The translations under genes and the position numbers were made by a program. Shown here one piece after another: positions 1-21,302 of a stretch of DNA of 34,728 nucleotides. Source of the DNA: Thermovirgaceae bacterium. GTDB lineage: Bacteria; Synergistota; Synergistia; Synergistales; Thermovirgaceae. The notes under the pieces are model-generated. The model searched no databases, was not told the origin of the DNA, and saw nothing but the letters and a program-made list of their open reading frames with translations. The first letter of the stretch is position 1; each line of letters opens with the position of its first letter. The stretch covers positions 1-34,728 of the forward strand of contig JBKHBH010000014.1 in assembly GCA_046542505.1 (NCBI GenBank), in the 5' to 3' direction.

Positions 1-54
1 GGGTGACATTTTCCCTGTCCCCTTAAAGGGTGACATTATCGCTGTCCGGTCACA
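1..54. mobile_element. Terminal repeat of an IS-like element (TGT/ACA-ended, IS1202/IS481-like), copy 1; the element body would lie off the left edge
   Basis: Two tandem 20-bp subrepeats GGGTGACATTWTCSCTGTCC (1-20 and 28-47, period 27), ending ...GGTCACA. Positions 1-55 are 54/55 identical to 21166-21220. A TGT terminus with repeated binding sites is typical of these DDE transposon ends. No transposase is present in the window, so the family is inferred. Confidence 0.7.
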
Positions 55-71
55 ACAGGGACAGGAAGAGG

Positions 72-100
72 TTGACGCCCGAAGGGATCTCTCATATAAT
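72..100 (+). promoter_or_regulatory. sigma70/sigmaA promoter of tRNA-Leu
   Basis: TTGACG (72-77), 17-bp spacer, TATAAT (95-100); 21 bp upstream of the tRNA. Confidence 0.85.
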
Positions 101-121
101 TGCTTTCGCGTCAGAAATCGA

Positions 122-208
122 GCGGGGGTGGCGGAACAGGTAGACGCGCCAGGTTGAGGGCCTGGTGGCCTCCGGGCTGTGGGAGTTCGAGTCTCCCCCT
201 CCGCACCA
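122..208 (+). tRNA. tRNA-Leu (anticodon GAG)
   Basis: Acceptor stem GCGGGGG/CCTCCGC, D-loop with GG, anticodon arm CCAGG-TTGAGGG-CCTGG, long variable arm, T-loop TTCGAGT, encoded CCA; 87 nt. Confidence 0.97.
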
Positions 209-218
209 CAAACACCGA

Positions 219-251
219 GTGCCCTTCATTTAGTGAAGGGCACCTTTTTTT
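219..251 (+). terminator. Intrinsic terminator after the tRNA
   Basis: Hairpin GTGCCCTTCA-TTTAG-TGAAGGGCAC followed by C and a T7 tract. Confidence 0.85.
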
Positions 252-271
252 CTGATTCAGGGTCCGGTGTC

Positions 272-1534
272 TCAGTCAATAAGTAAATCTGGAATCCACA
301 AGGCGATTTGCGGGAAGATCACCAGAAGGACAAGAACGAGGACCATGGATGCGTACAAAGGCAGCAGGAACCTGAAACTCTCTTCATATCGGACATTGGC
401 GATCCGGCAGGCGGCGATAAGGTCAACACCCAAAGGCGGTGTGTTGGCCCCGATCGCCAGGTTCACGCAGACGATGACGCCCAGGTGAACGGGATCCATT
501 CCCAGCTGCATGAATATGGGCATGACGATAATGATGATGGCGATTGTTTCCATGAACATGCCAAGGATGATCAGGAGGATGTTGAAAAGGATCAGAATGA
601 CCCAGTAATTCCCGCTTACGGAAAGAAAGAAGTCTGCCACTTTCTGGGGGATGTCCTCAGCGGCGAGAATCCAGCCGAAGAGATTCGCCGCGGCGATGAT
701 GAAAAGAACAACGGCACTGATTCTGGCGACCTCTATGCAGATTTCCATGAGTTTGTGCCACGTCACCTTTTTGTAGACGAACATCGACAGGATGAGAGCA
801 TAGAGCGCTGCAACGCCGCCGGCTTCGGTTGCCGTGAAAATACCCAGAAGTATTCCTCCGAGGATGATGAAAGGTACCAAAAGGGGCAGAAAGGCCCCTT
901 TGAAAGCCGTCCATCTTTCACGCCAGTTCGACCGGTCGAGACGGGGATAGTTTTCCCGAAGGGCGAACACATAAGAAATGAGCATCAGGCCGATTCCCGC
1001 CAGGATACCGGGAATGATGCCTCCAAGGAAAAGTTTCCCGATTGAAGTTCCCATAGTGACTCCAAGGATGACCATGACGATGCTTGGAGGGATGATCGTC
1101 GCCAGGGCACCGGAACATCCAAGCAGAGCGGCGCTGAAAGGTTTCTTGTAGCCTTGTTCCTTCATGACGGGAAGAAGGATTGATCCAATGGCCGCCACAT
1201 CGGCTACGCCCGAACCGGAAATGGCCCCGAAAAACATGCAGGAAACGACCATGACCATTGCCATGCCTCCCGGGATGTGCCCCACGAGGGTGGAGGCGAA
1301 TTTCATGATCCTCGGCGTGATGTCGCCTTCCGCCATGAGTCCGCCTGCCAGAAGGAACAGGGGAATTGCAAGAAGAGTAAAGGAATCAACCCCGACGACC
1401 ATACGCTGGGCAACGACCAATAGTGGAACGGCTGATTCGAATATCAGATATGCCGTCCCGGAGATCGCAATGGCGAAGGCCACGGGAATCCCGGCGGCCA
1501 AAGACAGAAACATGACGGCCAGCAGCGTCAACAT
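272..1534 (-). CDS. dctM: TRAP transporter large permease
   Basis: 420-aa hydrophobic protein with motifs LLAIPLFLLAG, FFGAISGS, IIPPS, GIFTATEA and TPP. Confidence 0.95.
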   Translation of the reverse strand: MLTLLAVMFLSLAAGIPVAFAIAISGTAYLIFESAVPLLVVAQRMVVGVDSFTLLAIPLFLLAGGLMAEGDITPRIMKFASTLVGHIPGGMAMVMVVSCMFFGAISGSGVADVAAIGSILLPVMKEQGYKKPFSAALLGCSGALATIIPPSIVMVILGVTMGTSIGKLFLGGIIPGILAGIGLMLISYVFALRENYPRLDRSNWRERWTAFKGAFLPLLVPFIILGGILLGIFTATEAGGVAALYALILSMFVYKKVTWHKLMEICIEVARISAVVLFIIAAANLFGWILAAEDIPQKVADFFLSVSGNYWVILILFNILLIILGMFMETIAIIIIVMPIFMQLGMDPVHLGVIVCVNLAIGANTPPLGVDLIAACRIANVRYEESFRFLLPLYASMVLVLVLLVIFPQIALWIPDLLID

Positions 1535-1546
1535 AGAAGTTTCACC

Positions 1547-2020
1547 TCATTGCCTTTCCCTGTCCTTCAGGAAGGGAAAGCGCCGGAAGCCGGCGATCAT
1601 GAGAATGCATCCCACCGGGAATGCCAGATAAAGGATGCCGGCGGGTACTTGGAGAGCCGTTGTCCGTTGCGGCCATGTCCGCATGACAACCTGCCATCCC
1701 GACCATATACCGATGAAAAGAAACACGAGCATTACGGCATCAGCGAGGAGTTGTACTCCTTTTTTTAGCGGCTGGCAGGAAATGGCCTCCACGACAAAGC
1801 TGACAACCATGTGCTCCCCCCGCCGCATGGCGGCGGCGGACCCGAGGAAGGTGAGCCAGACGAGAAGAGTCTTCGAAAACTCCGCTCCCCACGGGATGGG
1901 TGCGAGGAATATGTACCTGGCGCTGACCTCGATGACGACCTCTGCGAAAATTAGCAAGAGGGCGATGGAAAGGAGAAATTCCACCGCCCCGAAGATTCGC
2001 TCCAGTACCCTATTCACCAT
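1547..2020 (-). CDS. dctQ: TRAP transporter small permease
   Basis: 157 aa with 4 TM segments, motif W-x-x-E...VWLTFLGSAAAMRRGEH; lies between dctP and dctM. Confidence 0.92.
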   Translation of the reverse strand: MVNRVLERIFGAVEFLLSIALLLIFAEVVIEVSARYIFLAPIPWGAEFSKTLLVWLTFLGSAAAMRRGEHMVVSFVVEAISCQPLKKGVQLLADAVMLVFLFIGIWSGWQVVMRTWPQRTTALQVPAGILYLAFPVGCILMIAGFRRFPFLKDRERQ

Positions 2021-2984
2021 ATTTCCTCACAAGATCCATGAGCTCTTTCCCGAAGACGGATTCATACTCCTTCCAGACCGGCTGGACAGCAGCCTTGAAG
2101 GCATCCTTGTCGACCTCGTTGATTTCCATGCCTTTTTCTTCCAGTTTCGTGAGGAAATCTTCTTCCTGTTGCATGATCTGTTCCCGTTCCCGATCGCGCC
2201 ATTTCTCGGCGAGGTTGATGACAATTTCTTTGTCTTCGTCTGAAATGCAGTTCCAGACTGAGCTGTTGACACACAAAAGAGCCGAACCCCAGATGTGGCC
2301 GCTCAGGGAAAGGTAGTCCTGGACTTCATAGAATGCACTGGAGTGGATGATGGCCAGCGGGTTTTCCTGGGCATCGACGACGCCTTGTTGCAAGGCGGTG
2401 TAAAGTTCTCCGAAGTCTATGGGCATCGGGGATGCGCCCAGGGTATTGAAAGTGTCAAGCCGCATCTTGTCGGGTGTGACCCGGATCTTCATGCCTTCCA
2501 TGTCCGCCGGTACGACAATGGGCTTTTTGCTGTTGGTTATGTGGCGGAAGCCGTTTTCCCACCATGCGAGCCCCGTGATGCCCTTTAAGTCGAGTATTTC
2601 GAGCAGCATGTCGCCGATTTCCCCGTCCATCGCCGTGTAGGCGGCCTGATGGTCTGCCCAGGCGTAAGGAAGAGCCTCGATCCCGAATTTCGGGTCCAGG
2701 GACTGGAAAGAACCGCCGCCGATAAGACCTCCGTCTACGGTCTGAAGCGTCAGTCCCTCAATAACGTCTTTCTCGTTCCCCAGCTGGGAACTCGGATACA
2801 CCTTGACGACAACCCGCCCGTCGGTCTGTTTCTCCACATCCCTGGCGAAGCCTTCAAGATTTGTGTGCCATGCATGATCGGAATTCAGAACGTGCCCTAT
2901 CTTGATTTCGACGGCGGAGAAGGAAGGTGCCGGTGCCAGCAGGAGAAAGCAAACTATTGTTGTCAGTGCAATCAGCTTTCGCAT
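2010..2984 (-). CDS. dctP: TRAP transporter substrate-binding protein
   Basis: Signal peptide MRKLIALTTIVCFLLLAPAPSFS; motifs YPSSQLG, ENGFR, GMKIRV, ELYTALQQGVVDAQENP. Start moved to the ATG at 2984 (the ORF is open to 3056). Confidence 0.93.
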   Translation of the reverse strand: MRKLIALTTIVCFLLLAPAPSFSAVEIKIGHVLNSDHAWHTNLEGFARDVEKQTDGRVVVKVYPSSQLGNEKDVIEGLTLQTVDGGLIGGGSFQSLDPKFGIEALPYAWADHQAAYTAMDGEIGDMLLEILDLKGITGLAWWENGFRHITNSKKPIVVPADMEGMKIRVTPDKMRLDTFNTLGASPMPIDFGELYTALQQGVVDAQENPLAIIHSSAFYEVQDYLSLSGHIWGSALLCVNSSVWNCISDEDKEIVINLAEKWRDREREQIMQQEEDFLTKLEEKGMEINEVDKDAFKAAVQPVWKEYESVFGKELMDLVRKYGE

Positions 2985-3216
2985 CTTTTCCCCATCCCTT
3001 TTTTTCGCAGGATATAACAAAAGGTTTTTTATTTTCTCACTGGGATGAAATTTCACCCCCTTCTGCAGTAGAACCGCCGATTTTTTCGTTTCTTACTTTA
3101 CTAGAGGACAGCATGTTTGTAATACTCCGTACAATCTGGAAAGAGAAGTACCAAAATTTGATTTTCAGATCACCAGGGAAAAGAGCGCCTGTGTATGGTT
3201 TACGGTTTCGAGGAAA

Positions 3217-4140
3217 CTAACCCGGAGGGATTGTCCGGTTCCGCCGAGAAGATTCACAGGAAACGACGGCAATGGCAGCCACGATCATAAGGCCGCCGAG
3301 GATTTCAAAGGAAGCGGGCGGGCTTTTCAGTGCGATGGCCGAAAGAGCAAAGGCGGTGACGATTTCTATCGACGAGACGACGCTTGCTGCAGGGGCCTGG
3401 ATCGATCGGAGTGCGAAAAAGTACAGGGAATAACCGATAAAGCTGCCGATAAGACTGAGATAGAGAATCCAAAGCAGTTGCACTCGAGTGAGAAGCACAA
3501 GATCCGCCCATCCAGAGGAAAAGGTTTTGAGCAGAAGAAGCCAGAATGTTCCGAATACCTGGGCATAAAAGAAAAAGGACAACTGGGACATGCTTTTGGA
3601 ATTTGTCATGTAACGCCCGGACAGGGAATAAAGGGCCATTCCCGTAGATGCCAGCATGGACCAGAAGACGCCTCTCCAGGAAAACTCGAGCGCATTGTTC
3701 TGAAAACCGGGGAAGATGGCGATGGCGACACCGGCAAGTGTAATAAGGGCGGCGGCGATGTGAACCGGTTTTGGTGGCTCTTTTGCAACAAAAGCGGAAC
3801 CCACTGCGGTGAGGAGGGGGTGCGAAAAGAAAATCACCACGGCCAACGGCACAGTGAGCGTCTCCAGGGCCAGAAAAAAGGCGGCGTAGATGCCTGGGAT
3901 CGAAACGGCCGAGACCAGTGCGACAGGAATTGCCGCCCTTGGAGAAATCGACAGCGCCGACGGGTTCGCGAAAAGCAGAAAGAGACCGATCGCGAAGGCC
4001 ATCACAGCCGCCCGCAACACTGCGACGGTGAGCATGTCAGTGCCGAGTCCCGCAAGGGTCTTTCCCACCGGGCTCATCGTTCCCCAAAGGACGCCTGCCA
4101 GAAGGATTGATGAAAGGCCTTTGTAAGTGTCGTTTTTCAT
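3217..4140 (-). CDS. DMT/EamA family transporter
   Basis: 307 aa, about 10 TM segments in two EamA-like repeats; GGAGG RBS upstream. Confidence 0.9.
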   Translation of the reverse strand: MKNDTYKGLSSILLAGVLWGTMSPVGKTLAGLGTDMLTVAVLRAAVMAFAIGLFLLFANPSALSISPRAAIPVALVSAVSIPGIYAAFFLALETLTVPLAVVIFFSHPLLTAVGSAFVAKEPPKPVHIAAALITLAGVAIAIFPGFQNNALEFSWRGVFWSMLASTGMALYSLSGRYMTNSKSMSQLSFFFYAQVFGTFWLLLLKTFSSGWADLVLLTRVQLLWILYLSLIGSFIGYSLYFFALRSIQAPAASVVSSIEIVTAFALSAIALKSPPASFEILGGLMIVAAIAVVSCESSRRNRTIPPG

Positions 4141-4233
4141 TTACCCTCCAGGATTATCGTATCCGTGATATATCGGAAACCATTGTAATTGTACGTGATA
4201 ACGGAGGATGGACGTTTTCAATACCGCGGGAGG

Positions 4234-4983
4234 TCATGATAAGAGTGTTTTTGAGTCTTCGGGGATTTCCCAGCCCAGCTCGCCGCAGGCCGTCAGAAAG
4301 TCCGGTCCGGGCGGGTCTGTGACTGTAAAGGGTGTTCCTTTACGAGGATGGGGGATGGTGATCCTGCAGGCATGAAGGAGAAGGCGTCTGACGCGGAAAT
4401 GGCTTCTGAAGAAGCGATTGTGCCTGCCGTCACCGTATTCGACGTCGCCGATAACCGGGTGCGAGATGCGCCGCAGATGCCTTCTGATCTGATGTCTCCG
4501 GCCTGTAAGGGGATGGATCCTGACCAGAGAATACCGGCTTGTCGGGTGTTTCGAGACAGCGTAGGGCACCTCAGCCGTCGCGAGACGGATGTATTCCGTC
4601 AGGGCGTCTTTTGGCGTTCCTTGTCTGAAACCTGGTTCTTCGATGTTGCCATCGGAAGGTTTGCCCAGCGGGGAATCGATTTTCCCCATTTCATCGACCC
4701 AGCCCCTCACGACGGCAATATAGGTTTTTCGCACGGCATTTTCTCTAAAACTTTCCGAAAGGGACCTCGCTGATTCCAAAGTGGTGGCGAAAAGAACAAT
4801 GCCAGACGTCGGCCTGTCCAGGCGATGCACCGGATAAAGATATCGACCGGTCAGATCGCGGGCCTGCTGCAAAAGAAAGGGGCCTTTGTCTGATGCTATC
4901 CGTGTTCGGTGAACAAGTAACCCTTCCGGTTTCGACAGGGCTATGAGGTGTTCATCTTCGTAAAGAACGAAGGTTGGGTTCAA
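4234..4983 (-). CDS. truC: RluA-family pseudouridine synthase, TruC-like
   Basis: Catalytic HRLDRPTSG, KPEGLLVH, TGRRHQIRRH and HPVIGD; the C-terminal half resembles E. coli TruC/YqcB as recalled. Confidence 0.8.
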   Translation of the reverse strand: MNPTFVLYEDEHLIALSKPEGLLVHRTRIASDKGPFLLQQARDLTGRYLYPVHRLDRPTSGIVLFATTLESARSLSESFRENAVRKTYIAVVRGWVDEMGKIDSPLGKPSDGNIEEPGFRQGTPKDALTEYIRLATAEVPYAVSKHPTSRYSLVRIHPLTGRRHQIRRHLRRISHPVIGDVEYGDGRHNRFFRSHFRVRRLLLHACRITIPHPRKGTPFTVTDPPGPDFLTACGELGWEIPEDSKTLLS

Positions 4984-5063
4984 GGAATCCCTCCAGTCTG
5001 GAGACGTCTAAGGAGAAACTATTCTACCTCCCCGTGGGGCTCCCTTCAATAGTTTGCGTCTGT

Positions 5064-5092
5064 TTGTTGTACATACCATATAGAGGTATAAT
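5064..5092 (+). promoter_or_regulatory. Putative sigma70 promoter of the selenoprotein gene
   Basis: TTGTTG (5064-5069), 17 bp, TATAAT (5087-5092); RBS GAGGGGG at 5116-5122. Confidence 0.5.
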
Positions 5093-5130
5093 GTGAAAAA
5101 TGTAATCTTCGATCTGAGGGGGATATTTCA

Positions 5131-5424
5131 ATGAAATCACTCGCTCTTTCAGTAAACGGCAAGGCCCGGGGGATTATGGAATCCATGGGCAACACCGGGC
5201 ATATCGTTCACGCAACCATGGGAAGCGGCTGATGCAGGATTCCCGTCGCCCTCGTCGAGGGTGGAGAACCTGAAGACAAAAGTGTCCATACCGTTGTGGA
5301 ATCCGAGGGGTTGAAAGTGTGGATTCCCGAGGGCATGTCTTTTTCGGCTGATACAGTGAAGGTTCAGGCGGAAAAAAGTTGGAACGGCTGGATACTTTTT
5401 GTTCCGAGCGCACTTTTGGGGTAA
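5131..5424 (+). CDS. Putative selenoprotein, CC/Se-motif (HesB-like) family, 97 aa with Sec34
   Basis: Manual translation: MKSLALSVNGKARGIMESMGNTGHIVHATMGSG-U(TGA 5230-5232)-CRIPVALVEGGEPEDKSVHTVVESEGLKVWIPEGMSFSADTVKVQAEKSWNGWILFVPSALLG*. It has an RBS and a promoter, the frame stays open after the UGA, and a SECIS-like hairpin follows. Absent from the ORF track. Confidence 0.8.
5235..5272 (+). promoter_or_regulatory. Bacterial SECIS-like stem-loop
   Basis: Upper stem CGCCCUC/GAGGGUG with apical loop GUC (G at 5254, 21 nt between the UGA and the loop); lower stem CAGG(A)UUC/GAACCUG. Confidence 0.65.
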
Positions 5425-5531
5425 GCGCCGCATGAACGAAAAAGAAGGCGGTAGGCCGCGGACTCGTTAACGGCTTGCCCCTTGCCATGTTCATGGGGTA
5501 AACTCGACGCTGTCCCGGTATTGCAAGAATA

Positions 5532-6230
5532 TTGAACAAAAAAGGAGAGAATCTGGAATTGAATCGACGAGAGCGAAAAGCCCCCGTTGTTGTGGTTTTG
5601 TGCCTCCTTTTGCTCCTTTCGTTTTTCGTGGGAGCCGGATTCGCGGAAGGGGACGTTTACAACAGGAACTTGAGGGAAGATCCCGTAGAAGCGCAAAAGG
5701 AACCCGACCCTGCAAAAACCCGAGATGGTAAGATGGTCGTAATCATGAACAGGTTCATGGAGGCAAATCCGGAACTTGAGGAGTATGCTGCAGGGAAATT
5801 TGCCGGATATGTTTTGGAGGCGTCGGATCAATTTGGTGTCCATCCCTTCCTCATTGCGGCAATCATCATCAAGGAATCCACCGTTCGTTACAGGGCCCGT
5901 TCACGTTACGCCTACGGACTCATGCAGATCAACTGGAGCGCCCACAAAAGGGCTCTTAGGTCAGCCTTCAGTGAGATAGAGACCCTTGAAGACCTCATAC
6001 AGCCGCGCAACAATATTCTGGCGGGGACCTACATTTTTTCCTGTTACCTTAATTCCAGTGACGGCAACATTTCCGAGGCCCTTGCCATGTATCTCGGCAA
6101 AAACGGGACGAGGTATATTAAAAACGTCATGGAGAATTTCGAGCTCATGCTGGCTCAATATGAGAAAAAACAGGAACAGAGAATCACAAGCCTGCCCTGT
6201 TTGAGCCTGGTTGCTCAAACAGAGGCCTGA
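5532..6230 (+). CDS. Lytic transglycosylase (SLT domain), exported or membrane-anchored
   Basis: N-terminal hydrophobic segment; SLT motifs AIIIKES, AYGLMQI, NILAGTYI and ALAMY; start codon uncertain. Confidence 0.85.
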   Translation: MNKKGENLELNRRERKAPVVVVLCLLLLLSFFVGAGFAEGDVYNRNLREDPVEAQKEPDPAKTRDGKMVVIMNRFMEANPELEEYAAGKFAGYVLEASDQFGVHPFLIAAIIIKESTVRYRARSRYAYGLMQINWSAHKRALRSAFSEIETLEDLIQPRNNILAGTYIFSCYLNSSDGNISEALAMYLGKNGTRYIKNVMENFELMLAQYEKKQEQRITSLPCLSLVAQTEA

Positions 6231-6249
6231 TGAAATTGGGGGTTTTGTC

Positions 6250-7338
6250 GTGAAGGAAGCTTCCCGCAATTGGCCCAAGCTGAGACTCGGGAAACATGAA
6301 CCCAAATATCCCCTGATTCAGGGTGGCATGGGAGTCAGAATTTCCGGGCCTCGGCTCGCAGGTGCCGTCGCAAAGGCCGGCGGGGTCGGGACCATCGCCA
6401 GCGTCGGCCTCGCTGTGTGTTCCCCACTGTATGACGGGACCAACTATTTCGAGGTAAACAAGAAAGTCATACGTGCTGATATCGCCCTGGCAAGAAGCCT
6501 TGCACCCGGCGGGGTCATTGCCGTCAACGCCATGGTTGCCCTGACGGATTTTGAGGATCACGTCAGGGCTGCTTGCGAGGGTGGTGTGGATGTCATTATT
6601 TCCGGTGCCGGCCTGCCCCTCAGGCTTCCTGAAATCACCGCCGGATACCCGGATGTGGCTTTGATTCCCATAGTCAGTTCCACCAAGGCTGCGAGGATCA
6701 TAAACCGCCGTTGGGAAAAACACTACAAAAGACTGCCCGACGGATTCGTTGTGGAAACGCCTCTGTACGCCGGCGGACACCTGGGCGTCACCAAACCAGA
6801 GCAGGTTGATGACGAGGCTTTTTCCCTGGAACATGTCGTTCCGGAGCTTGTCGCGTACCTGGAGGAAGAAATCAAGGTGGACATTCCGGTCATAGCTGCT
6901 GGAGGAATTTGGGACCGCGGTGATGTGGAACGAATGTTCAGCCTCGGGGCCAAAGGTGTTCAGATGGGAACCCGGTTCGCCACCACTGTTGAAGGGGATG
7001 CGAGTCAGGGGTTCAAGGACGTGTTTATCAACGCTAAAGAGGAAGACGTTGTCGTCATCAAGAGTCCCGTAGGCATTCCGGGAAGGGTGTTGCGGACGCC
7101 CTTTGTTGAGGAGTATCTCCAGGGGCGCGTCAAGAGCAAGCCATGTTTCGCCAACTGCCTCTCTCATTGTGCCTACAGGAATGAACGAAAGGCATTCTGC
7201 ATTGCACAGGCATTGGTGGATGCTTTCCGCGGGAATTATGAAGAAGGCCTTTTCTTCTGCGGTTCAAACGTTGGTCGGATCTCCCGCATGGAAAAGGTGG
7301 ACGAGATTTTCCAGGAGCTTTTCAGCGAAGGATCCTGA
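6250..7338 (+). CDS. Nitronate monooxygenase / FabK-like FMN-dependent oxidoreductase
   Basis: PLIQGGMG, SGAGLP, AGGHLG, IAAGGI, GVQMGTRF and a C-terminal Cys cluster; start placed at GTG 6250 (ORF open from 6211). Confidence 0.88.
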   Translation: MKEASRNWPKLRLGKHEPKYPLIQGGMGVRISGPRLAGAVAKAGGVGTIASVGLAVCSPLYDGTNYFEVNKKVIRADIALARSLAPGGVIAVNAMVALTDFEDHVRAACEGGVDVIISGAGLPLRLPEITAGYPDVALIPIVSSTKAARIINRRWEKHYKRLPDGFVVETPLYAGGHLGVTKPEQVDDEAFSLEHVVPELVAYLEEEIKVDIPVIAAGGIWDRGDVERMFSLGAKGVQMGTRFATTVEGDASQGFKDVFINAKEEDVVVIKSPVGIPGRVLRTPFVEEYLQGRVKSKPCFANCLSHCAYRNERKAFCIAQALVDAFRGNYEEGLFFCGSNVGRISRMEKVDEIFQELFSEGS

Positions 7339-7345
7339 TCTGTCA

Positions 7346-8671: not shown

Positions 8672-8705
8672 TCTTTATCGCTCCCCTCGGTATCCAGGAG
8701 ATCCA

Positions 8706-10884: not shown

Positions 10885-10981
10885 TTCACGGCACTCCTTT
10901 CTCGGCTGAGTGAATGTTTTTCAATCCTTCCCTGCTTCACCGTGTCATGCTGCTCCGGAGGGAAGGCCGGAAAACATCCTG

Positions 10982-11692: not shown

Positions 11693-11699
11693 AACGTTT

Positions 11700-12989: not shown

Positions 12990-13160
12990 TTCCCAGCAGA
13001 GTCCTTTCGGATATTCTTCTGCATATCCGTTTCAATGTCCCAGTATACAGGTACCTTCCGTGAGAAATGGGGCGCACCAGGCACAAAACGCCGATATTTG
13101 GTATCCTTTTCCAGCGCCCTTGCATTTTGAAACATCCACAGCCGCCGCGGGAGGTTTCTT

Positions 13161-13522: not shown

Positions 13523-13535
13523 AGGAGTGAGAGCC

Positions 13536-13853
13536 ATGTCCGGGAAACCGTCTGAACCGAAAGAGGAAGGAACCTCTTTGGAGAAGAAGATTTCAGACAT
13601 TTTGGAAGATCATCGTTGCTTTGATTTTGTGGAAATGATGAAAAGCCCCTGGAAACTGTTTTGGAGGAATTTTCTCGTTGGCGTCGCCAGGGGGCTTGGA
13701 TTTGCCGTTGGCCTGACCATATTGGCCGCCGTCGTCGGCTACATCATTATTGGATTGCTCAAACCATTACTCTCCCTGCAGCTTCCTGTCATAGGCGGCC
13801 TTATCGCCGACATCATCCAGTCGGTCCAGAACCAGATGAATGGAGGAATGTAA
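13536..13853 (+). CDS. DUF5665-like membrane protein
   Basis: SPWKLFWRNFLVGVARGLGFAVG and LPVIGGLIADII; AAGGAG RBS; start at ATG 13536. Confidence 0.75.
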   Translation: MSGKPSEPKEEGTSLEKKISDILEDHRCFDFVEMMKSPWKLFWRNFLVGVARGLGFAVGLTILAAVVGYIIIGLLKPLLSLQLPVIGGLIADIIQSVQNQMNGGM

Positions 13854-14413
13854 TGAAGCGGAAAAACCTTTTTCTCGCAGCGCTGGCTTGTTTTTTCTGT
13901 TTTTCGGGCCTCGCAACGACTGCTGCGTTTCCGTCCCCTGGGGAGTTCCCGGCCGAAACTCCTCAACCCCTCGTCCTGGAAGATTTCGTAGAGAAATGGA
14001 ATCTTGCCGACTCCAACTGGATTCTCATAGACAAATCCCGTTTCTCACTCGTCCAGTACAGGGGTGTCTGCGAAATCGCCCGTTTCGATGTGGCCCTTGG
14101 TAAAAAACCGGGAAACAAGCAACGTGTCGGTGATATGCGGACCCCCGAAGGGGTTTTCAGGGTTGTCAGCATACATGACTCGAAACATTGGGTGCATGAT
14201 TTCGGCGACGGGAAAGGACCTGTCGAGGGTGCCTACGGGCCCTGGTTCATCCGCCTTGAGACGGGCTGGAAGGGGATCGGAATCCACGGCACCCACGATC
14301 CGGCGTCGATAGGAACACGTGCGAGCGAGGGATGCATCCGGATGAAAAACGAAAAGCTGCTCCAGATCGTTGACGAAATGTCTCCCGGCACAGTGGTGGT
14401 CATAAAGCCGTGA
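13853..14413 (+). CDS. L,D-transpeptidase (YkuD family)
   Basis: Signal peptide; GDMRTPEG, YGPWFIRL, catalytic GIHGT...SEGCIRM; coupled to the upstream gene by a TAATG overlap. Confidence 0.92.
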   Translation: MKRKNLFLAALACFFCFSGLATTAAFPSPGEFPAETPQPLVLEDFVEKWNLADSNWILIDKSRFSLVQYRGVCEIARFDVALGKKPGNKQRVGDMRTPEGVFRVVSIHDSKHWVHDFGDGKGPVEGAYGPWFIRLETGWKGIGIHGTHDPASIGTRASEGCIRMKNEKLLQIVDEMSPGTVVVIKP

Positions 14414-14492
14414 CGGCTTCCTGTTTGTGCAAAAGTGCACTAGACTAGGAAACGGCCTGTGCCGTAAATTTATGAAAGGGGAGTGATGAAAG

Positions 14493-15692
14493 GTGTCCCA
14501 GCAGGTGTGGGAAAACCTTTATTCAAACGTGGCGAAGGCACTCAAACCTTCTCCTATAAGGGAACTTATGAAATACACCAAAAAGCCGGGCATGATATCC
14601 CTTGCCGGCGGCAATCCGGACCCGAGAATATTCCCCGTCCCGGAATTCCAGGAAGCTGCGGCCATCATTGGCGAACGTGGAAGAGATGTTCTCCAGTACG
14701 GGACGACGGGAGGATACGAGCCGCTGAAGGACTTCATCTCTGAGTGGATGGCACCTCGGATGGGTCGAAAGGTGAGTTCCGACGAATTGCTTATTACCAC
14801 CGGTTCCCAGCAGGTTATGGATCTGTTTGCGGCGGTTTTGCTCAATCCGGGTGACGCTGTGGTTGTTGAGGAACCCACCTATCCCGGGGCGACTCATGTC
14901 TTGAGAAACCGGCAGGCCTCTTTTGTTACTGTACCCTGTGACAAGGACGGCATGCGTGTGGACCTGCTGCCTGAAAAGCTTGACCATGCCGCGGCAGAGG
15001 GTAAAAAGGTCAAATTCATTTACTCCATCGTCAATTTTCAGAATCCCTCGGGATATACCCTCACGGCGGCAAGAAGAAAGGAACTTCTTGCCGTGGCGTC
15101 ACGCTACGGTATCCCCATCCTTGAAGATGACCCCTACGGCCATCTCAGGTTTGAAAGTGAGCACGAGCCGACGCTGTTTTCCATGGATACGGCGGGAATA
15201 GTGGCCTACGCGTGCTCTTTCTCCAAGATCCTGGCGCCCGGCACGAGGGTTGCCTGGGTCGTGGGACCGGAACACGTGATCAGGAAGATGGTAATGGTGA
15301 AACAGGGAAGCGACCTCTGTACGAGCACCGTGTCCCAGGCCATTGTTTACGAGTATTGCCGTCTCGGCCACATGGAGACGTTTCTCCCGAAAATCATAGA
15401 TCACTACAGGAAAAAGCGTGATGCCATGGAGCGGGCGTTCAGAAAGCACCTTCCCGAAAATGCCTTGTACGAGACTCCTGAAGGCGGTTTTTTCTACTGG
15501 CTGACTCTGCCGGGCATAGATTCCCGGGAACTCTTCAGCAAGGCCATAGACGAAGGAGTGGCCTTCGTCGTAGGGGATGCCTTTTTCCCCAATGGCGGAG
15601 GTGCTGAAAATGTTCGGACTTGCTTTACCTTTGCTGCAGAGGACGAACTCGACGAAGCCGCACAGCGGCTTGCACGGGCGATAGAAAAATGA
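14493..15692 (+). CDS. PLP-dependent aminotransferase class I/II (LysN/ARO8-like)
   Basis: ISLAGGNP, LQYG, ITTGSQQ, FQNPSG, EDDPY, SFSKILAPG, PEGGFF. Confidence 0.93.
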   Translation: MSQQVWENLYSNVAKALKPSPIRELMKYTKKPGMISLAGGNPDPRIFPVPEFQEAAAIIGERGRDVLQYGTTGGYEPLKDFISEWMAPRMGRKVSSDELLITTGSQQVMDLFAAVLLNPGDAVVVEEPTYPGATHVLRNRQASFVTVPCDKDGMRVDLLPEKLDHAAAEGKKVKFIYSIVNFQNPSGYTLTAARRKELLAVASRYGIPILEDDPYGHLRFESEHEPTLFSMDTAGIVAYACSFSKILAPGTRVAWVVGPEHVIRKMVMVKQGSDLCTSTVSQAIVYEYCRLGHMETFLPKIIDHYRKKRDAMERAFRKHLPENALYETPEGGFFYWLTLPGIDSRELFSKAIDEGVAFVVGDAFFPNGGGAENVRTCFTFAAEDELDEAAQRLARAIEK

Positions 15693-15719
15693 AAGTCTGA
15701 GTGCAAGGTCGGAAAAAGC

Positions 15720-15757
15720 GCACAAAAGGGGCGGCCTTAAGGCCGCCCCTTTTGTGC
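15720..15757. terminator. Bidirectional intrinsic terminator
   Basis: Perfect 38-bp palindrome GCACAAAAGGGGCGGCCTT|AAGGCCGCCCCTTTTGTGC between convergent genes. Confidence 0.85.
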
Positions 15758-15777
15758 AGTGGGTGCTGAAGGTGTGT

Positions 15778-16173
15778 TCACGAAACCTTGATTTCCTTCG
15801 AGTTTTCCCAGAACCCGTGAATGTTGCAGTAGGCTGTCGCATACAGGACGCCTGCTTTTTTCGTTGCCATCTCTGCCGTGACTGAGTGGTTGGTGTACAC
15901 GGCGCCCTCGTTTGCGCCCTCCACAGATTCGCCGTGGGCGGTGAATTCGAAGTTTCCTACCTGGACGGGGAATTTTTCGCCTTCAGGTTTAAAGAAAAGC
16001 TGGATCCACCTGATGTGGTGTTCCGTGGTATTTGGGTGAGCGATCTCTTTCCCGAGGGAGACTTTAACCTTGAACGTTCCACCGGCTGTGACGGTATCGG
16101 GGCATTCGATAACGGGGACGTGTTTCTCGGATTTCCAGTCAGCGCTCTGGTACAGTTCGGCAATCTTTCCCAT
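15778..16173 (-). CDS. sor: Superoxide reductase (neelaredoxin-type, single Fe domain)
   Basis: EKHVP, HPNTTEHHIRWI, YCNIHG; start at ATG 16173 after GGGAGG. Confidence 0.93.
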   Translation of the reverse strand: MGKIAELYQSADWKSEKHVPVIECPDTVTAGGTFKVKVSLGKEIAHPNTTEHHIRWIQLFFKPEGEKFPVQVGNFEFTAHGESVEGANEGAVYTNHSVTAEMATKKAGVLYATAYCNIHGFWENSKEIKVS

Positions 16174-16410
16174 AAATCTGACCTCCCTTTTTCGCGCATT
16201 CTGAGAATATTTTACAAGATCGCGCACTCACAGGCAAAATCAGCCCGTGGCTCATGTGAAAAAAACTTTGGTGCCAAAAAACAAATTGTTCCGCCCTGGG
16301 CATTTGCCGCAGAGCTTGTTTCGGTTATGCTGAAGCCGTCCGGTCCGAATCGACACCTTGCGCCCCGTTGGTCTGGGGGTGCTGGAAATTTCGGCAGGAA
16401 GGGGATTTCG

Positions 16411-17583
16411 ATGGACAACCCTCTTTTTACGTTCTCGGCGCCGGGAAACGTAATATTTGGAGAATATTCGTCAAGACGCATTGTCGATGTTTTGTCTCTT
16501 CACGGGGTGAGCAATCCGGGAATCATGATGGGTCGCACCCTGTCGAAGACGGCAATACGGGAAAAGGTGGTCCATATCCTTGAGGAAGGTGGATACAGAC
16601 CCGTCGTTTTCGACGGAATTCCTCCCGAACCGCCAGTCGGGATCCTGGACAGTGTAGCCGCAAAGGTCAAAGAAGCAGGTCTTGACGTCCTCATAGGACT
16701 TGGCGGCGGCAGCACCATGGATTTTACGAAAGTGGTCTCGGTCCTCGCAAAAGACGGAATGGATGTCATGTCCCTGGTGGGAAGGGGCCGCGTTCCTCGA
16801 AGAGGTCTTCCCACGGTCATGATGCCCACTACGGCGGGAAGCGGTTCCGAGGTTTCTCCCGTGGCCATATTCACCTTCCCAGAGGAACAGGTAAAAAAAG
16901 GTGTCGTCAGCCCTTTCCTGATGCCTGACGCCGCAATTGTGGACCCGGCCTTCACCCTGGATTTGCCTGCCAGGGTGACGGCCAACACCGGCGTGGATGC
17001 CTTCATTCATGCCGTCGAGTCCTATCTGTCTGTGAACGCCAACCCCTTCAGCAGGGAACTATCCCTTGCAGCGGTCAGGAAGATCTACCCTTTCCTGCAC
17101 ATCGCCTTGAAGGACGGGCACGACAGAAAGGCGCGCTACAATATGTCACTGGGAAGCCTCCTCGCGGGGATGGCCTTCGCCATGGCCGGAACGGCGGCCG
17201 TTCATGCCCTCGCCTATCCTCTCGGGGGCGAGTTTCATTTTCCCCACGGGACGGCGAATGCCGTGATGCTCCGTTCCGTAATGGAAGCGAATCTGGAGGG
17301 CAATGAAGCATTGTTTGGGGTGCTTTCTGATACCATGAGGGAATCTGCCGGAGAAAAAAGGTATCGGGGAGATGTCCGGAAGAAGGCCCTTGACGCGCTT
17401 TCGCAGATGACGTCTTTTGCACGTGAAGCAGGTATCCCATCGAGGTTGAAGGATCTCGGGATCCCGAGTGAAGCTCTCCCGAGGATGGCTCTTGCCGCCT
17501 CGAGAGAAAAGCGGCTCCTGGGCAATAACCCGAAGACCTTTACGGTGAAAGACATAGAAAGAATCTACCGCGATGCGTGGTAA
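16411..17583 (+). CDS. Iron-containing alcohol dehydrogenase
   Basis: GLGGGSTMD, PTTAGSGSE, DAFIHAVE, HALAY, PHG; true start at ATG 16411 (the upstream ORF extension is antisense to sor). Confidence 0.93.
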   Translation: MDNPLFTFSAPGNVIFGEYSSRRIVDVLSLHGVSNPGIMMGRTLSKTAIREKVVHILEEGGYRPVVFDGIPPEPPVGILDSVAAKVKEAGLDVLIGLGGGSTMDFTKVVSVLAKDGMDVMSLVGRGRVPRRGLPTVMMPTTAGSGSEVSPVAIFTFPEEQVKKGVVSPFLMPDAAIVDPAFTLDLPARVTANTGVDAFIHAVESYLSVNANPFSRELSLAAVRKIYPFLHIALKDGHDRKARYNMSLGSLLAGMAFAMAGTAAVHALAYPLGGEFHFPHGTANAVMLRSVMEANLEGNEALFGVLSDTMRESAGEKRYRGDVRKKALDALSQMTSFAREAGIPSRLKDLGIPSEALPRMALAASREKRLLGNNPKTFTVKDIERIYRDAW

Positions 17584-17613
17584 ACCAGAAGGGAAAGGGA
17601 AGGGTGACTGCCG

Positions 17614-18390
17614 ATGAGAATTGCGCGATTCGTCATGAAATCCGATGAAAGAGAAAACGCACGATGGGGGACTGTTGAAGGCGGTCTTCTTTACCCCCGG
17701 GAAACTCCCGGAAACAGAGCTGCCAGCGAACCCGTCAGGCTTGAGGATGCAAGGCTTCTCGCACCGGCCGTACCGTCAAAAATCATATGTGTCGGCCTGA
17801 ATTACCTGAAGCACATAGAAGAATCGGGTTACGACAAGGAATCGCTGCCGAAGGAACCGAGCCTTTTCCTAAAGGGACCGAATGCCCTGGCCGATCCTGA
17901 CAGCGTAATACCCTATCCTTCCTTTACGAAGGAATTTGACTATGAGGGCGAACTTGCCGTGATCGTGGGAAAACGGATGACACCGGGATCCAAAAACCCG
18001 ATGGAAGGTGTTCTCGGTTATACGGCGGGCCTTGACATGACAGCCAGAGACAAGCAGCGGAAGGATACCCAGTGGACGGCGGCGAAATCCGGGGATCTTT
18101 TTTGCCCCCTCGGTCCCTGGATCGAAACGGATCTAGATGCCGGGAACGTGGCCGTGAGGACGAAGGTGAACGGAGAAATCCGGCAAGACGGGCGAACGGA
18201 TGACCTGTTGTTTCCCGTGGAGAAGATCCTTGGTCACATTCTCACCTTCATGACTCTTGAGCCGGGGGATGTGGTGCTGACGGGAACACCTTCCGGTGTG
18301 GGGCGGGTCTTCCCGGGTGACACGATTGAAGTCGAAATAGAAGGTCTCGGGCGGGCCCTTGCCGTGACGATCGGTCCAAAACGGGAATAA
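17614..18390 (+). CDS. Fumarylacetoacetate hydrolase family protein
   Basis: KIICVGLNY, DYEGELAV, DMTARD, CPLGPW, TLEPGDVVLTGTPSGVG. Confidence 0.93.
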   Translation: MRIARFVMKSDERENARWGTVEGGLLYPRETPGNRAASEPVRLEDARLLAPAVPSKIICVGLNYLKHIEESGYDKESLPKEPSLFLKGPNALADPDSVIPYPSFTKEFDYEGELAVIVGKRMTPGSKNPMEGVLGYTAGLDMTARDKQRKDTQWTAAKSGDLFCPLGPWIETDLDAGNVAVRTKVNGEIRQDGRTDDLLFPVEKILGHILTFMTLEPGDVVLTGTPSGVGRVFPGDTIEVEIEGLGRALAVTIGPKRE

Positions 18391-18408
18391 AAAGGGGGAT
18401 TAGGCGCC

Positions 18409-20511
18409 ATGACCGTTTTCACGGATCTTGCGAAGCTGCTGGAGCCTGAATCCGTTGCAATCGTCGGCGCTTCAGAAAACCTCGAAAGCATTTCCGGAAG
18501 GCCGCTGAAACTGCTTCGCCGCTTTGGTTACGGTGGCAGGATATACCCGGTGAATCCGAAACATGACGAGATAGACGGTCTGACCTGCTATCGGGATCTT
18601 GAGAGTTTGCCTGAAGTCCCGGATGTGGTGCTTATCGGGGTTCGGGCCAAAATCGTGCCGGAAATCGTAGAGCAGTGCAACGTCCTCAGCGTGCCCTTTG
18701 CCGTCATCTTCTCCTCTGGTTTTGCCGAAAGCGAGGATTATAAGGGTCAAAACAGGCTTATGGCGGCTGTGCAGCGGGGGCCGACGAGAGTTCTCGGTCC
18801 CAACTGCCAGGGGCTCGTAAATTTTGTGTCCGGCATTCCCCTGAGCTTCTCCGCTTCGCTCGATACCGAGAAGTGGGCAAAAGGCCATGTGGCCTACGTG
18901 TCCCAGAGCGGGGCCTTCGGATACGCTTCCTTTGCCATGGCCGCCGAGCGCGGGGTGGGATTCCGGTACGTAGTAACCACCGGCAACCAGACGGACCTCG
19001 ATGTGGTGGATTTCGGTGATGCCTTCCTTGAAGATCCCGAGGTCCGGCTGCTTGTCTTGTACCTCGAGGGTATAAAAACGGGAAGCCGCCTGATTGGCCT
19101 GCTCAAGAAGGCTGAAAAAAAGGGCATCCCCGTGGCCGTTCTCAAGGTGGGCGGCAGCCCGACGGGGCAGGAGGCAGCCAAAAGCCATACTGCCGCGGTA
19201 ACCGGAGACAGGGTCGTTTGGGAGACGGTTCTCAAACAATACGGAGCCATGGAGATTGATGACGTGGAAGACATCGTCGACCTTGGAAAGGTCTTTGGTG
19301 TGCTTCCCCGCGCCGGGGGAAACAGGCTGGGAATTCTTACGACCTCAGGCGGTGCGGGTATCATAATGGCCGACAGGGCCTGGGAGAAAGGTCTCCAGGT
19401 CCCGGAGCTCTCTCCCGGGGTGCGGAGTAAAATCGAAAAGTATATTCCTTCTTTCGGGTCATCCAGGAACCCCGTCGACCTGACGGCCCAGGTCATAAAC
19501 GAGCCCGAAGGATTTTCAGAGTGCGTCAGAACCGTATTGGAATCACCTGAAACGGATATGGTCGTGGTTGTCCTTTCCATGATAACCGGCGCGTCCGGGA
19601 AGAAACTTGCCGATGATATCATTGACATCTCTGCCGTGTCAGAAAAACCCATGGCCGTATGCTGGCTCATTGATAAAGAGCATGGAGGCACATTTCTTTC
19701 ACTTCTCCGCAATGCAGGAATACCGCTTTTTCAGAGCCCGAGAAGGTGTGCCGGAGCACTTGCCAGGCTCACAGAGGGTGACAAGTCGCCTGATGGTGAG
19801 TGCGAGCCGAAGCCGGCTCAAAAGAAGCCGCTTGCGGGATTGTTACCGGAAACTCCCACGGAATATGATGCGAAACGACTTTTGGCCGAATATGGTGTTT
19901 CAGTCACGCAAGAAAGACTGTGCGGTTCCCTGTCCGAGGCTTTAGGAGCGGCCGAGGAGATCGGTTACCCCGTGGCCCTGAAGATCATGTCCCCCGATAT
20001 CATTCACAAGACGGAGGCAGGTATCGTATCGCTGAACCTTAACTCAGAGGAAGAAGTGAGAAACGCCTACGGAAGGCTCATGGAACGCGCTGGAAAGGCC
20101 GTTCCGGGGGCAACCATCCAGGGGGTGCTGATCCAGGAGATGGTCACCGGCGGAGTGGAGTGCATGATCGGCGTCAAGCGGGACCCCCTGTTCGGGCCGG
20201 TGGTGGTGGCAGGGCTCGGTGGGATTTACGTGGAAATCCTTCAGGACCTGGCGCTGAGACATGCTCCCGTGAACAAAAAAGCAGCGATGACCATGCTCTC
20301 GGAACTGAAGGGATATCCCCTTCTTGCCGGTGCACGGGGCCGTTCAAGGCTTGACATCGAGTCTCTTGCCGATACTATCGTCAGGATTTCGTCTCTTGCC
20401 TGCAATGAGGAGGAACTCCAGGAGCTTGACGTAAACCCCGTTTTCGTCTTCGAACAGGGCAAGGGCGTCAAGGCCGTCGACGCCGTTGTCGTGAGGAGAG
20501 GCTCTGCGTGA
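18409..20511 (+). CDS. ADP-forming acetate/acyl-CoA ligase, fused alpha-beta
   Basis: VAIVGAS, GPNCQG, SQSGA, SHT phospho-His motif, TTSGG, NPVD; ATP-grasp part GYPVALK...HKTEAG, DPLFGP, LDVNP. Confidence 0.93.
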   Translation: MTVFTDLAKLLEPESVAIVGASENLESISGRPLKLLRRFGYGGRIYPVNPKHDEIDGLTCYRDLESLPEVPDVVLIGVRAKIVPEIVEQCNVLSVPFAVIFSSGFAESEDYKGQNRLMAAVQRGPTRVLGPNCQGLVNFVSGIPLSFSASLDTEKWAKGHVAYVSQSGAFGYASFAMAAERGVGFRYVVTTGNQTDLDVVDFGDAFLEDPEVRLLVLYLEGIKTGSRLIGLLKKAEKKGIPVAVLKVGGSPTGQEAAKSHTAAVTGDRVVWETVLKQYGAMEIDDVEDIVDLGKVFGVLPRAGGNRLGILTTSGGAGIIMADRAWEKGLQVPELSPGVRSKIEKYIPSFGSSRNPVDLTAQVINEPEGFSECVRTVLESPETDMVVVVLSMITGASGKKLADDIIDISAVSEKPMAVCWLIDKEHGGTFLSLLRNAGIPLFQSPRRCAGALARLTEGDKSPDGECEPKPAQKKPLAGLLPETPTEYDAKRLLAEYGVSVTQERLCGSLSEALGAAEEIGYPVALKIMSPDIIHKTEAGIVSLNLNSEEEVRNAYGRLMERAGKAVPGATIQGVLIQEMVTGGVECMIGVKRDPLFGPVVVAGLGGIYVEILQDLALRHAPVNKKAAMTMLSELKGYPLLAGARGRSRLDIESLADTIVRISSLACNEEELQELDVNPVFVFEQGKGVKAVDAVVVRRGSA

Positions 20512-21098
20512 GTGTGTTTTGGCTGCTTGTGATTGCCGGGTATCTCTTTGGATCGATTCCGGCGGGATACCTGGCTGTTATGTGGAAAAAAGGAATAGAT
20601 ATACGGATCGTCGGATCCGGGAATATCGGCGCCACAAACGTGGGGAGAATCCTCGGCAGAAAATGGTCCATAGCCGTGGCGGCTTTCGATATGGTCAAAG
20701 GAGGCGTTGTGCTGATCGCCGGAATGGCCGCTGGATTAACGGATCCCCTCATCCTGGGCCTTTCCGGTTTTGCCGCCGTCATTGGGCACGATTATCCCTT
20801 CTGGCTTCGCTTCAGGGGCGGCAAGGGTATATCGACGACCTACGGCGCTGTTTTCGTACTGAACCCTATAGCGGCCCTCGGGGCCGGGGCAGTCTGGTAC
20901 GCCATTCTCAGGCTGAGCGGATATGTTTCGGTGGCCTCTATTGTTTCCCTCTGGTTTATTCCGGTTTTCATGATATTCCTCGCCGAACCCTTCGCCTATG
21001 TAGTTTCCTGTGTCGCCCTGGCCGCACTTGCCGTTTTGAGACATTCTGAAAACATCAGAAAGATTCGCGAAGGGACCGAGGCCAAAGTCGGTCGTTAA
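20508..21098 (+). CDS. plsY: Glycerol-3-phosphate acyltransferase
   Basis: GYLFGSIP, GSGNIGATN, GHDYP, FRGGKG, RHSENI. Confidence 0.95.
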   Translation: MSVFWLLVIAGYLFGSIPAGYLAVMWKKGIDIRIVGSGNIGATNVGRILGRKWSIAVAAFDMVKGGVVLIAGMAAGLTDPLILGLSGFAAVIGHDYPFWLRFRGGKGISTTYGAVFVLNPIAALGAGAVWYAILRLSGYVSVASIVSLWFIPVFMIFLAEPFAYVVSCVALAALAVLRHSENIRKIREGTEAKVGR

Positions 21099-21165
21099 AT
21101 GTCCCCAGGCAGTCCTTACGGAGGTCACCCGCATTCTTCTTCATGTTCGTTATTCTGACTCATGG

Positions 21166-21219
21166 GGGTGACATTTTCCCTGTCCCCTTAAAGGGTGACA
21201 TTATCCCTGTCCGGTCACA
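21166..21219. mobile_element. Solo terminal repeat of the same IS-like element, copy 2
   Basis: One mismatch to 1-54; located between plsY and the ctsR promoter; no transposase nearby. Confidence 0.7.
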
Positions 21220-21235
21220 AAACCCCTGAATCGAA

Positions 21236-21288
21236 ATTGACTTATTCTGACCATTAACATATAATGGCGACCGTCAACTTAGGTCAAA
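21236..21288. promoter_or_regulatory. Two CtsR operators in opposite orientation
   Basis: Minus strand 21236-21252 reads GGTCAGA-ATA-AGTCAAT; plus strand 21272-21288 reads CGTCAAC-TTA-GGTCAAA. Both resemble the RGTCAAA-N3-RGTCAAA heptad repeat. Confidence 0.75.
21237..21265 (+). promoter_or_regulatory. sigma70/sigmaA promoter of the ctsR operon
   Basis: TTGACT (21237-21242), 17 bp, TATAAT (21260-21265). Confidence 0.85.
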
Positions 21289-21302
21289 AAGGAGGTCCTG
21301 CC

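Follow-up and report, generated by a model that had tools for sequence, protein, structure and literature searches.

How does one and the same transposon-like end come to stand at a fixed distance upstream of two unrelated promoters? The question arises from a stretch of 34,728 nucleotides (nt) from a Thermovirgaceae bacterium of the Synergistota (assembly GCA_046542505.1, contig JBKHBH010000014.1, positions 1 to 34,728), referred to here as the window, which is the whole of contig C25 in a 142-contig assembly (genome G000). A first-pass annotation had reported that both copies of a repeat end 17 base pairs (bp) before a TTGACN-N17-TATAAT promoter, which is borne out by the sequence at positions 54 and 21219, and had ascribed the repeat to a TGT-ended DDE element that selects its sites by their position relative to promoters. 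Our data lead to an answer of which we are quite confident: the repeat is the left inverted repeat (IRL) of a 1.49-kb insertion sequence (IS) of the IS1202 family (ISTde1 subgroup) that integrates next to sigma-70/sigmaA promoters.

The 54-mer at window positions 1 to 54 recurs at 21166 to 21219 with one mismatch, and each copy contains two units of a 20-nt internal repeat (four units in the window, compared to 0.00 expected from 100 shuffles). Copy 1 (1..54, reverse strand) is the transposase-proximal end of the element and is 100% identical to IS positions 1-54 of the complete copy at locus L005 described below; its 20-nt transposase-site repeats lie at 1-20 and 28-47, and its tip, GGTCACA, ends at 54. 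Since window position 1 is the contig start, copy 1 is cut by the assembly and the remaining element lies beyond it; most likely, a full IS copy was lost at the assembly break and copy 1 is its edge. On the forward strand, its tip is followed by a 17-nt target segment (55..71, read from the sequence) and by the sigma-70-type promoter of tRNA-Leu (72..100, TTGACG-N17-TATAAT, 11/12 consensus matches), with the −35 hexamer at 72-77 and the −10 hexamer at 95-100. Copy 2 (21121..21219, reverse strand) is a 99-bp IRL remnant, 94% identical to IS positions 1-99, that has kept both repeats plus the first 8 transposase codons (21121-21144). Similarity to the IS ends at 21121; the remaining IS is deleted and the target duplication is gone. 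Here, too, the tip is followed on the forward strand by 17 nt (21220..21236, again read from the sequence and unlike 55-71), and then by the sigma-70-type promoter of the ctsR-mcsA-mcsB-clpC operon (21237..21265, TTGACT-N17-TATAAT, 11/12 matches; −35 at 21237-21242 and −10 at 21260-21265).

Both promoters exist without the element in congeners. The plsY-ctsR spacers of G002, G003, G004, and G005 have the same promoter and no IS, and the 3′ part of window segment 21220-21236, GAATCGAAA, is retained in the empty site of G005. The tRNA-Leu promoter is free of the IS in G002 and G004, where a homologous 17 nt stands directly upstream of the same TTGACG. Both window insertions are lineage-specific. 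Furthermore, among 24 public runs examined as contigs, one contig spans the site of the G004 copy with a single copy of the duplication, that is, an empty allele. Window segment 55-71 is presumably one copy of a target duplication. Its reverse complement is absent from all five contigs of G000 that end in the opposite, right inverted repeat (IRR); no partner contig for copy 1 was found among them, and its duplication stays putative. The same segment contains GGGACAGG, the reverse complement of the IS-repeat core, which G002 and G004 lack at their orthologous empty sites; chance may account for it, or it may be the trace of an older event.

The complete element was recovered from a congener with a complete genome (L005, positions 112-1599; 1,488 bp). 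Its ends read TGTCAACGG...CCGGTCACA, with TGT...ACA termini, and its inverted repeats (IRL, TGTGACCGGACAGCGATAATGTCACC; IRR, TGTCAACGGACAGGGAAAATGTCATG) match at 20 of 26 positions. Each end carries two GGACAGnGAnAATGTCA transposase-site repeats, spaced by 27 bp in the IRL and by 36 bp in the IRR. The second conserved block, TGTCA, occupies positions 20-24 and is found again across a set of 66 related elements. The target duplication in L005 has 16 bp (TTTAGGTAAATCCGCC), as has that in L091, and is directly followed in L005 by TTGACA-N17-TAGAAT and a tRNA. The IS holds one long open reading frame (ORF), which encodes a 451-amino-acid (aa) DDE transposase (P0001), and hence Tn7-type TnsC/TniQ target selectors are absent from it. 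The transposase gene reads away from the promoter, and since it starts ~75 nt inside the promoter-facing end, that end is the IRL by convention.

Several further features of the element were seen. Almost throughout the Bacillota/Synergistota clade, the IRR tip (L005 112-117) is a perfect outward TTGACA, whereas the IRL tips vary. In a metagenome contig of run X3, a 15-nt spacer connects an IRL and an IRR head to tail, which reflects a tandem pair or else a circle junction. A promoter formed at such a junction from the TTGACA of the IRR tip, a 16-17-nt spacer, and the IRL tip was considered; the IRL tip, TGTGAC, matches a −10 hexamer at only 3/6 positions, and the idea was therefore dropped. 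Contigs of three public runs have identical internal deletions of the IS (L005 737-1466 and 559-1517, with 728 and 957 bp skipped) and are non-autonomous derivatives retaining both ends. An RNA-library run contained 0.91 of the element's sampled words.

The transposase matched the NCBIfam model NF033594 (transpos_ISNCY_2) with 353 bits (E = 1.6e-105; cutoff, 250), scored only 73 bits against the IS481 family (cutoff, 224), and had no match to an ISLre2, IS256, or Mutator family at E ≤ 0.01 in the family profile search. D151, the pair D171-D172, D211, E264, and Q271 are invariant in 15 homologues; the last of these is the Q at E+7 contained in the motif AKGRVERLWGTLQ of P0001. Judged by the IS1202-family motifs of the transposase, NF033594 would appear to represent the IS1202 group of ISNCY, and the element is, by its sequence, a new member of the IS1202 family. 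The 16-17-bp duplications fit the ISTde1 subgroup, against which the element was set by description. The predicted structure (predicted local distance difference test score [pLDDT], 78) comprises two helix-turn-helix (HTH) domains, an RNase-H core, a beta-barrel, and a disordered tail, and its top Foldseek matches are IstA, TnsB, and MuA (E = 1e-14 to 1e-10). The stretch between D211 and E264 is poorly modelled, and residues 228-234 are missing in a clade with 5-7-bp duplications. In the tail (P0001 395-451), P421, H425, P426, W427, and R428 (PxxxHPWR) are invariant in the 15 homologues, and this conserved motif may be a peptide that docks to a host partner. The repeat of the first-pass annotation is thus indeed linked to a transposase, in the complete IS of L005, and belongs to a TGT-ended DDE element; with its ISNCY_2 match, its Q at E+7, and the lack of an ISLre2 or Mutator match, this element is not an ordinary ISLre2 member.

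Is the position of the two window copies a coincidence? The IRL type of end occurs at ten places in G000, and in 10/10, it is followed by 16-17 nt, a −35-like hexamer (3-6/6 matches), and, at 16-17 nt, a −10. A co-oriented gene or tRNA comes after each: yerC-like, tRNA-Leu, ctsR, CoA ligase, skp-like, a short unassigned reading frame, phosphoesterase, tRNA-Ala, XRE regulator, and cspA. The IRR type occurs at five contig edges, and 0/5 of its flanks in G000 have the promoter arrangement. Three IRL and five IRR ends lie at contig edges of the assembly, and contigs C98 and C94 are linked by a shared 16-nt target duplication, which indicates that a multicopy element breaks the assembly. Copy 2 and six other sites in G000 are short, transposase-less pieces with a constant place relative to promoters. 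Among the short forms are 39-bp derivatives at promoters that run from an internal TGTCCCC to the IRL tip (G000 C37:1765-1803 and C57:4389-4427; L066 and others) and a 75-bp piece at a promoter with both ends (G000 C30:5715-5789). Miniature inverted-repeat transposable elements were rejected as an explanation of the 39-bp pieces, of which only 3/9 have 17-nt duplication-like flanks; their inner breakpoints vary, and therefore, most short pieces look like decay products anchored on the promoter side.

The same arrangement is found in close relatives. The IRL end is present in 24 of 41 related genomes (G000 counted), and 80 places at which the match reaches the tip were fetched from 22 related genomes (in G034, 11 of 21); matches to the inner part only and weak cross-matches to the IRR were left out. 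Together with the 10 sites of G000, these 90 ends gave 82 unique flanks after flanks that are at least 70% alike had been merged. At least 5/6 matches to TTGACA were present at an offset of 15-19 nt in 65 of the 82 unique flanks, 42 of them perfect. The distribution is narrow, with 5, 28, 25, 6, and 1 unique flanks at offsets 15, 16, 17, 18, and 19, respectively, compared to 15 at the 36 remaining offsets combined. When flanks were anchored on the hexamer, which was possible for 75/82, TAtAAT emerged 17 nt downstream though unselected, and a −10 with at least 4/6 matches was present in 66/75, compared to 7-15/75 at wrong spacers. The base before the −35 hexamer (position −36) is C in 49/75 flanks (background, 24/70 [~34%]); the two window sites have G (71) and A (21236) instead. 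Hence, the other copies keep both orientation and distance, and the earlier claim that sites are chosen by position relative to promoters gains support from these 65 of the 82 flanks. We infer that it is the transposase's choice of target that underlies the rule. In the unrelated-looking flanks L013, L027, L051, L052, and L086 and in the X3 spacer, the duplicated segment opens with a common (A/G)GGCAAC, which may mark a repeatedly hit multicopy promoter family, e.g., that of rRNA or tRNA operons.

Does the rule hold beyond the close relatives? When one genome per species was scanned with an alignment of the 15 homologues, 79 loci with 33-57% identity came up in Bacillota, Synergistota, Chloroflexota, Acidobacteriota, Sumerlaeota, Zixibacteria, Atribacterota, Myxococcota, and others. 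None of the 79 is from Bacteroidota; promoters of Bacteroidota have other motifs. Ends could be called in 66/79 loci, 60 of which come with an IRL flank of 46 nt or more. A hexamer with at least 5/6 matches to TTGACA was found at offset 15-18 in 25/60 IRL flanks compared to 2/61 IRR flanks, and other offset windows gave 0-4/60. In 24 of the 66 elements, a duplication of 15-18 bp confirms the ends, and in 15 of these 24, the hexamer starts exactly at the end of the duplication, 13 times as a perfect one. Promoter-adjacent elements occur in both major clades of the transposase tree, which holds only the surveyed loci and no ISfinder sequences. The notion that the target mimics the IRR tip was discarded: the orientation is wrong, and relatives with an IRR tip other than TGTCAA still stand at TTGACA.

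The orientation, the equality of spacing and duplication length, the intact promoter, and the reuse of a site are seen in the sequences themselves, and a simple geometry would account for them. In a staggered pair of cuts, one would abut the −35 hexamer on its upstream side and its partner would lie another 16-17 bp upstream. Repair would then leave the IRL one duplication length from the −35, with the transposase gene pointing away and the core promoter intact. Since the target would be regenerated, the same promoter could be hit again, leading to tandem arrays, and decay of copies would leave IRL stumps such as the one at window 21121-21219. Consistent with re-insertion into a regenerated target, the copies of a tandem pair in G034 (L081/L082) have the same 16-nt spacer between them and before the promoter. 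In a second pair of G034 (L088/L087), the spacers are not shared, and re-insertion therefore does not fit every tandem pair.

A number of observations weigh against an IS that integrates next to promoters as the full account. The transposase gene is absent from the G000 assembly, as searched with the full element and with NF033594, and only ends and stumps are assembled. The flank set is built from only the tip-reaching matches of the match table, in G034 only 11 of 21, and its genomes are kin and not fully independent, though near-identical flanks were merged. No hexamer with at least 5/6 matches stands at offset 15-19 in 17 of the 82 unique flanks. These exceptions include L013, L021, L023, and L087, three sites with only TTG as the −35 and a good −10, junctions with another IS (L070, L071, and L076), and tandem copies (L081, L088, and L090). 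Among the distant elements validated by a duplication, 9/24 have no good −35, and L132, L133, and L155 have nothing promoter-like. A well-supported clade of 15 Dehalococcoidia elements (L125, L128, L131, L132, L134, L137, L144, L148, L154, L156, L163-L166, and L168) has −35 adjacency in only 1/15 and has 5-7-bp duplications or none. It lacks P0001 residues 228-234, between D211 and E264, has A for W267, and has a different C-terminal tail; by these sequence features, the clade is a candidate for a natural switch of both stagger and target. Finally, all sites are survivors in genomes; the evidence comes from sequence, and no transposition was observed.

If such an IS homes to promoters, what does it recognize? 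With slightly better than even confidence, we favour recognition of the promoter as occupied or shaped by the RNA polymerase holoenzyme over a direct readout of TTGACA. A perfect TTGACA adjacent to the IS is accompanied by a −10 with at least 4/6 matches in 39/42 cases, compared to 66/176 intergenic and 73/989 coding TTGACA of G000 (Fisher p = 1.5e-11), which favours real promoters over bare hexamers and, indirectly, the route through bound RNA polymerase or sigma that the first-pass annotation had suggested, with the counterweight that the intergenic background derives from a crude ORF mask of one genome. A complex prediction of the transposase with region 4 of sigmaA (G004, residues 296-383) gave scores of 0.00 and 0.00 and counts neither way. 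It is imaginable, with a distinctly smaller probability, that the transposase reads (C)TTGACA directly, without RNA polymerase or sigma, and that the −10 is present because tolerated TTGACA are mostly promoters. Indeed, the −35 is far better conserved (1.5-1.9 bits for TTGAC) than the −10 (0.25-1.2 bits), TTGACA is perfect in 42/82 flanks, and the C before the hexamer (49/75 versus 24/70) is a nucleotide preference at the joining site. Furthermore, the Acidobacteriota loci L146, L147, L153, L157, and L160 combine a perfect or near-perfect −35 with a −10 of only 2-4/6 matches, and TGACA, in the same orientation, also forms the core of the transposase sites repeated within the element itself. 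However, direct readout would not explain why a proper −10 accompanies 39/42 IS-adjacent hexamers and only 66/176 intergenic ones, where neutral insertions should survive, nor the poor −35 with a good −10 at the right spacing in C57, L047, L058, L104, and L109. No copy stands at any of the 989 coding TTGACA of G000 either, though selection could explain this.

Explanations that dispense with a promoter-homing IS1202-type element fare much worse. That insertion is random and selection keeps only the copies upstream of promoters is very unlikely. Because a hit inside a gene or between −35 and −10 would do harm, some intergenic enrichment is expected, and no de novo events were seen; yet selection is blind to whether a copy stands 16-17 or 5 or 30 nt upstream of a −35, and 53/82 flanks measure exactly 16 or 17. 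Orientation is fixed as well (25/60 on the IRL side versus 2/61 on the IRR side), and the duplication ends exactly at the hexamer in 15/24 elements. A peak 2 nt wide and a fixed orientation are more than selection alone can produce. Even less credit is due to the idea that the element is an ordinary ISLre2/TnGBS/ISKra4 Mutator-like member with known targeting. The kind of target is the same, namely oriented and 15-17 bp upstream of a sigmaA −35, as far as the extract of PMC3942029 goes, but the transposase has no ISLre2, IS256, or Mutator match and 353 bits to ISNCY_2, its fold resembles IstA, TnsB, and MuA, and it combines Q at E+7 with TGT ends. By the same extract, the IRR faces the promoter in TnGBS/ISLre2 and the IRL does so here, and circle spacers measure 6-10 bp there, whereas the duplication fills all 16-17 bp here. 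Just as improbable is a host regulatory cassette, i.e., an operator or UP-like module instead of a transposon end. Copy 2 and the six other transposase-less sites of G000, always in the same place at promoters, could be taken for one, but the very same sequence terminates a complete IS that has a transposase, inverted repeats, and target duplications. Moreover, contigs break at the repeat, orthologous promoters of congeners work without it, and the stumps form a deletion series with differing inner breakpoints. An IS that homes to promoters is therefore the reading we retain.

The genes around the two window insertions are as follows. tRNA-Leu (anticodon GAG) is located at 122..208 on the forward strand, with a terminator-like hairpin after it (219-243). 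Upstream of copy 2 lies plsY (20508..21098, forward strand; Pfam G3P_acyltransf, E = 1e-47), and downstream of its promoter lies ctsR (21303..21782, forward strand; Pfam CtsR N-terminal domain, E = 2e-32, and C-terminal domain, E = 3e-14). The open frame of ctsR starts at 21264, an AGGAGG is present at 21290-21295, and the start is likely the GTG at 21303. Just 3′ of the ctsR −10, window 21272-21288 reads CGTCAAC-TTA-GGTCAAA, which we take to resemble the direct repeat of a CtsR operator; this candidate operator is left untouched by the IS stump.

Another element with similar habits was seen in G010. It is a different, 1,280-bp element (L182 85-1364) with TGT...ACA ends and a 385-aa transposase, whose best match is IS481 with 135 bits, below the cutoff. 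In 13 of its 17 copies (L185-L201; 14-15-bp duplications in 12), 18-19 nt separate the transposase-proximal end from a hexamer with at least 5/6 matches to TTGACA, compared to 2 such cases at all other offsets. In one of the 13 (L192), the hexamer is no promoter −35 but the IRR tip of an IS1202-type element. At four promoters, the 1,280-bp element is stacked with an IS1202-type element. Since this IS481-like element behaves alike (15-bp duplication plus 4 bp), upstream edges of promoters may be a common safe harbour for TGT-ended transposases of the retroviral-integrase type.

What would promoter homing mean for the IS1202 family? We are inclined to regard it, on a balance only just positive, as ancestral and general in the whole branch with 16-17-bp duplications, across at least eight phyla, and as independent of the Mutator-like TnGBS/ISLre2 elements. 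If this is true, the family would share one design in which a single duplication length separates the IRL from a DNA landmark occupied by protein. This landmark would be XerC on dif-like sites for one branch and sigma/RNA polymerase on the −35 for the present one, and a small change in the insertion of the catalytic domain or in the C-terminal tail would retune stagger and landmark. Promoter-directed transposition in bacteria has so far been tied to one transposase superfamily (TnGBS/ISLre2/ISKra4), with its mechanism unsolved. The element described here is a second, unrelated, single-protein system of even simpler geometry, in which the cut would abut the −35 and the stagger would be as wide as the gap, and because of this simplicity, how a transposase sees a promoter becomes testable by comparison and in vitro. 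As far as the extracts of the papers defining the IS1202 family go, these gave a target for one of the three subgroups, a gap that is filled here. In practice, IRL stumps can help annotators to recognize real promoters in uncultured phyla, and the element explains contig breaks beside promoters of tRNA and housekeeping genes. A compact enzyme that places DNA just upstream of intact promoters could also be a useful tool.

How does the element compare with known systems? The IS1202 family has been divided into three subgroups by duplication length and is marked by a Q that replaces K/R seven residues after the catalytic E; in the ISTde1 subgroup, a subgroup-specific insertion splits the DDE motif, and hosts are Synergistetes, Firmicutes, Chloroflexi, Acidobacteria, and Atribacterota, as given in the extracts of the defining papers (bioRxiv 10.1101/2022.12.17.520857 for all of these points; PMC10132070 for all but the insertion). 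Targeting is reported there only for the subgroup with 5-6-bp duplications, one of the two papers speaking of "loss of xrs targeting" in the others (bioRxiv 10.1101/2022.12.17.520857; PMC10132070). By those extracts, our element resembles the ISTde1 subgroup in its size range (1.3-1.75 kb), its single DDE transposase with N-terminal HTH, its TGT termini, the conserved block near position 20 of both ends, 16-17-bp duplications (15-17-bp criterion), the DD pair between the first two catalytic D, and Q at E+7, and the phyla are those of the surveyed loci. In contrast to the published ISTde1 subgroup, for which these texts report no target, a strict promoter rule applies here, a comparison made by description. 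Within the literature that was at hand, including part of an IS survey (PMC9208149), no report of promoter targeting by IS1202-family elements was found, and a remark in ISfinder, TnPedia, or the supplementary site table of the preprint is possible; to this extent, promoter targeting is a behaviour not found described for the family. The ISAba32 subgroup (ISAjo2 and ISKpn21; XerC/D targets) is, as far as it is covered by the same extracts, similar in that insertion is oriented with the IRL toward the landmark, the distance equals the duplication length, one site is hit repeatedly, and partial copies retain the IRL. It differs in its landmark, the XerC arm of dif-like sites, which lies 5-6 bp away, compared to the −35 at 16-17 bp here.

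A behavioural parallel is found in TnGBS, ISLre2, and ISKra4. As far as the extract of Guerillot et al. 2014 (PMC3942029) goes, they insert in an oriented manner 15-17 bp upstream of the sigmaA −35 and have been proposed to touch the RNA polymerase initiation complex. Orientation, distance, and an intact promoter are common to both. In contrast to these elements, whose IRR faces the promoter and whose circle spacers have 6-10 bp according to that extract, the element described here has a transposase of an unrelated superfamily and a duplication that spans the whole gap to the −35. In the organization of its ends, with several transposase sites per end, unequal spacing, and TGT termini, it is instead similar to the elements moved by TnsB (Tn7 and CRISPR-associated transposons [CAST]), IstA (IS21), and MuA. 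These transposases choose their targets via a separate AAA+ partner (TnsC, IstB, and MuB, respectively), whereas the promoter-adjacent IS has one gene only.

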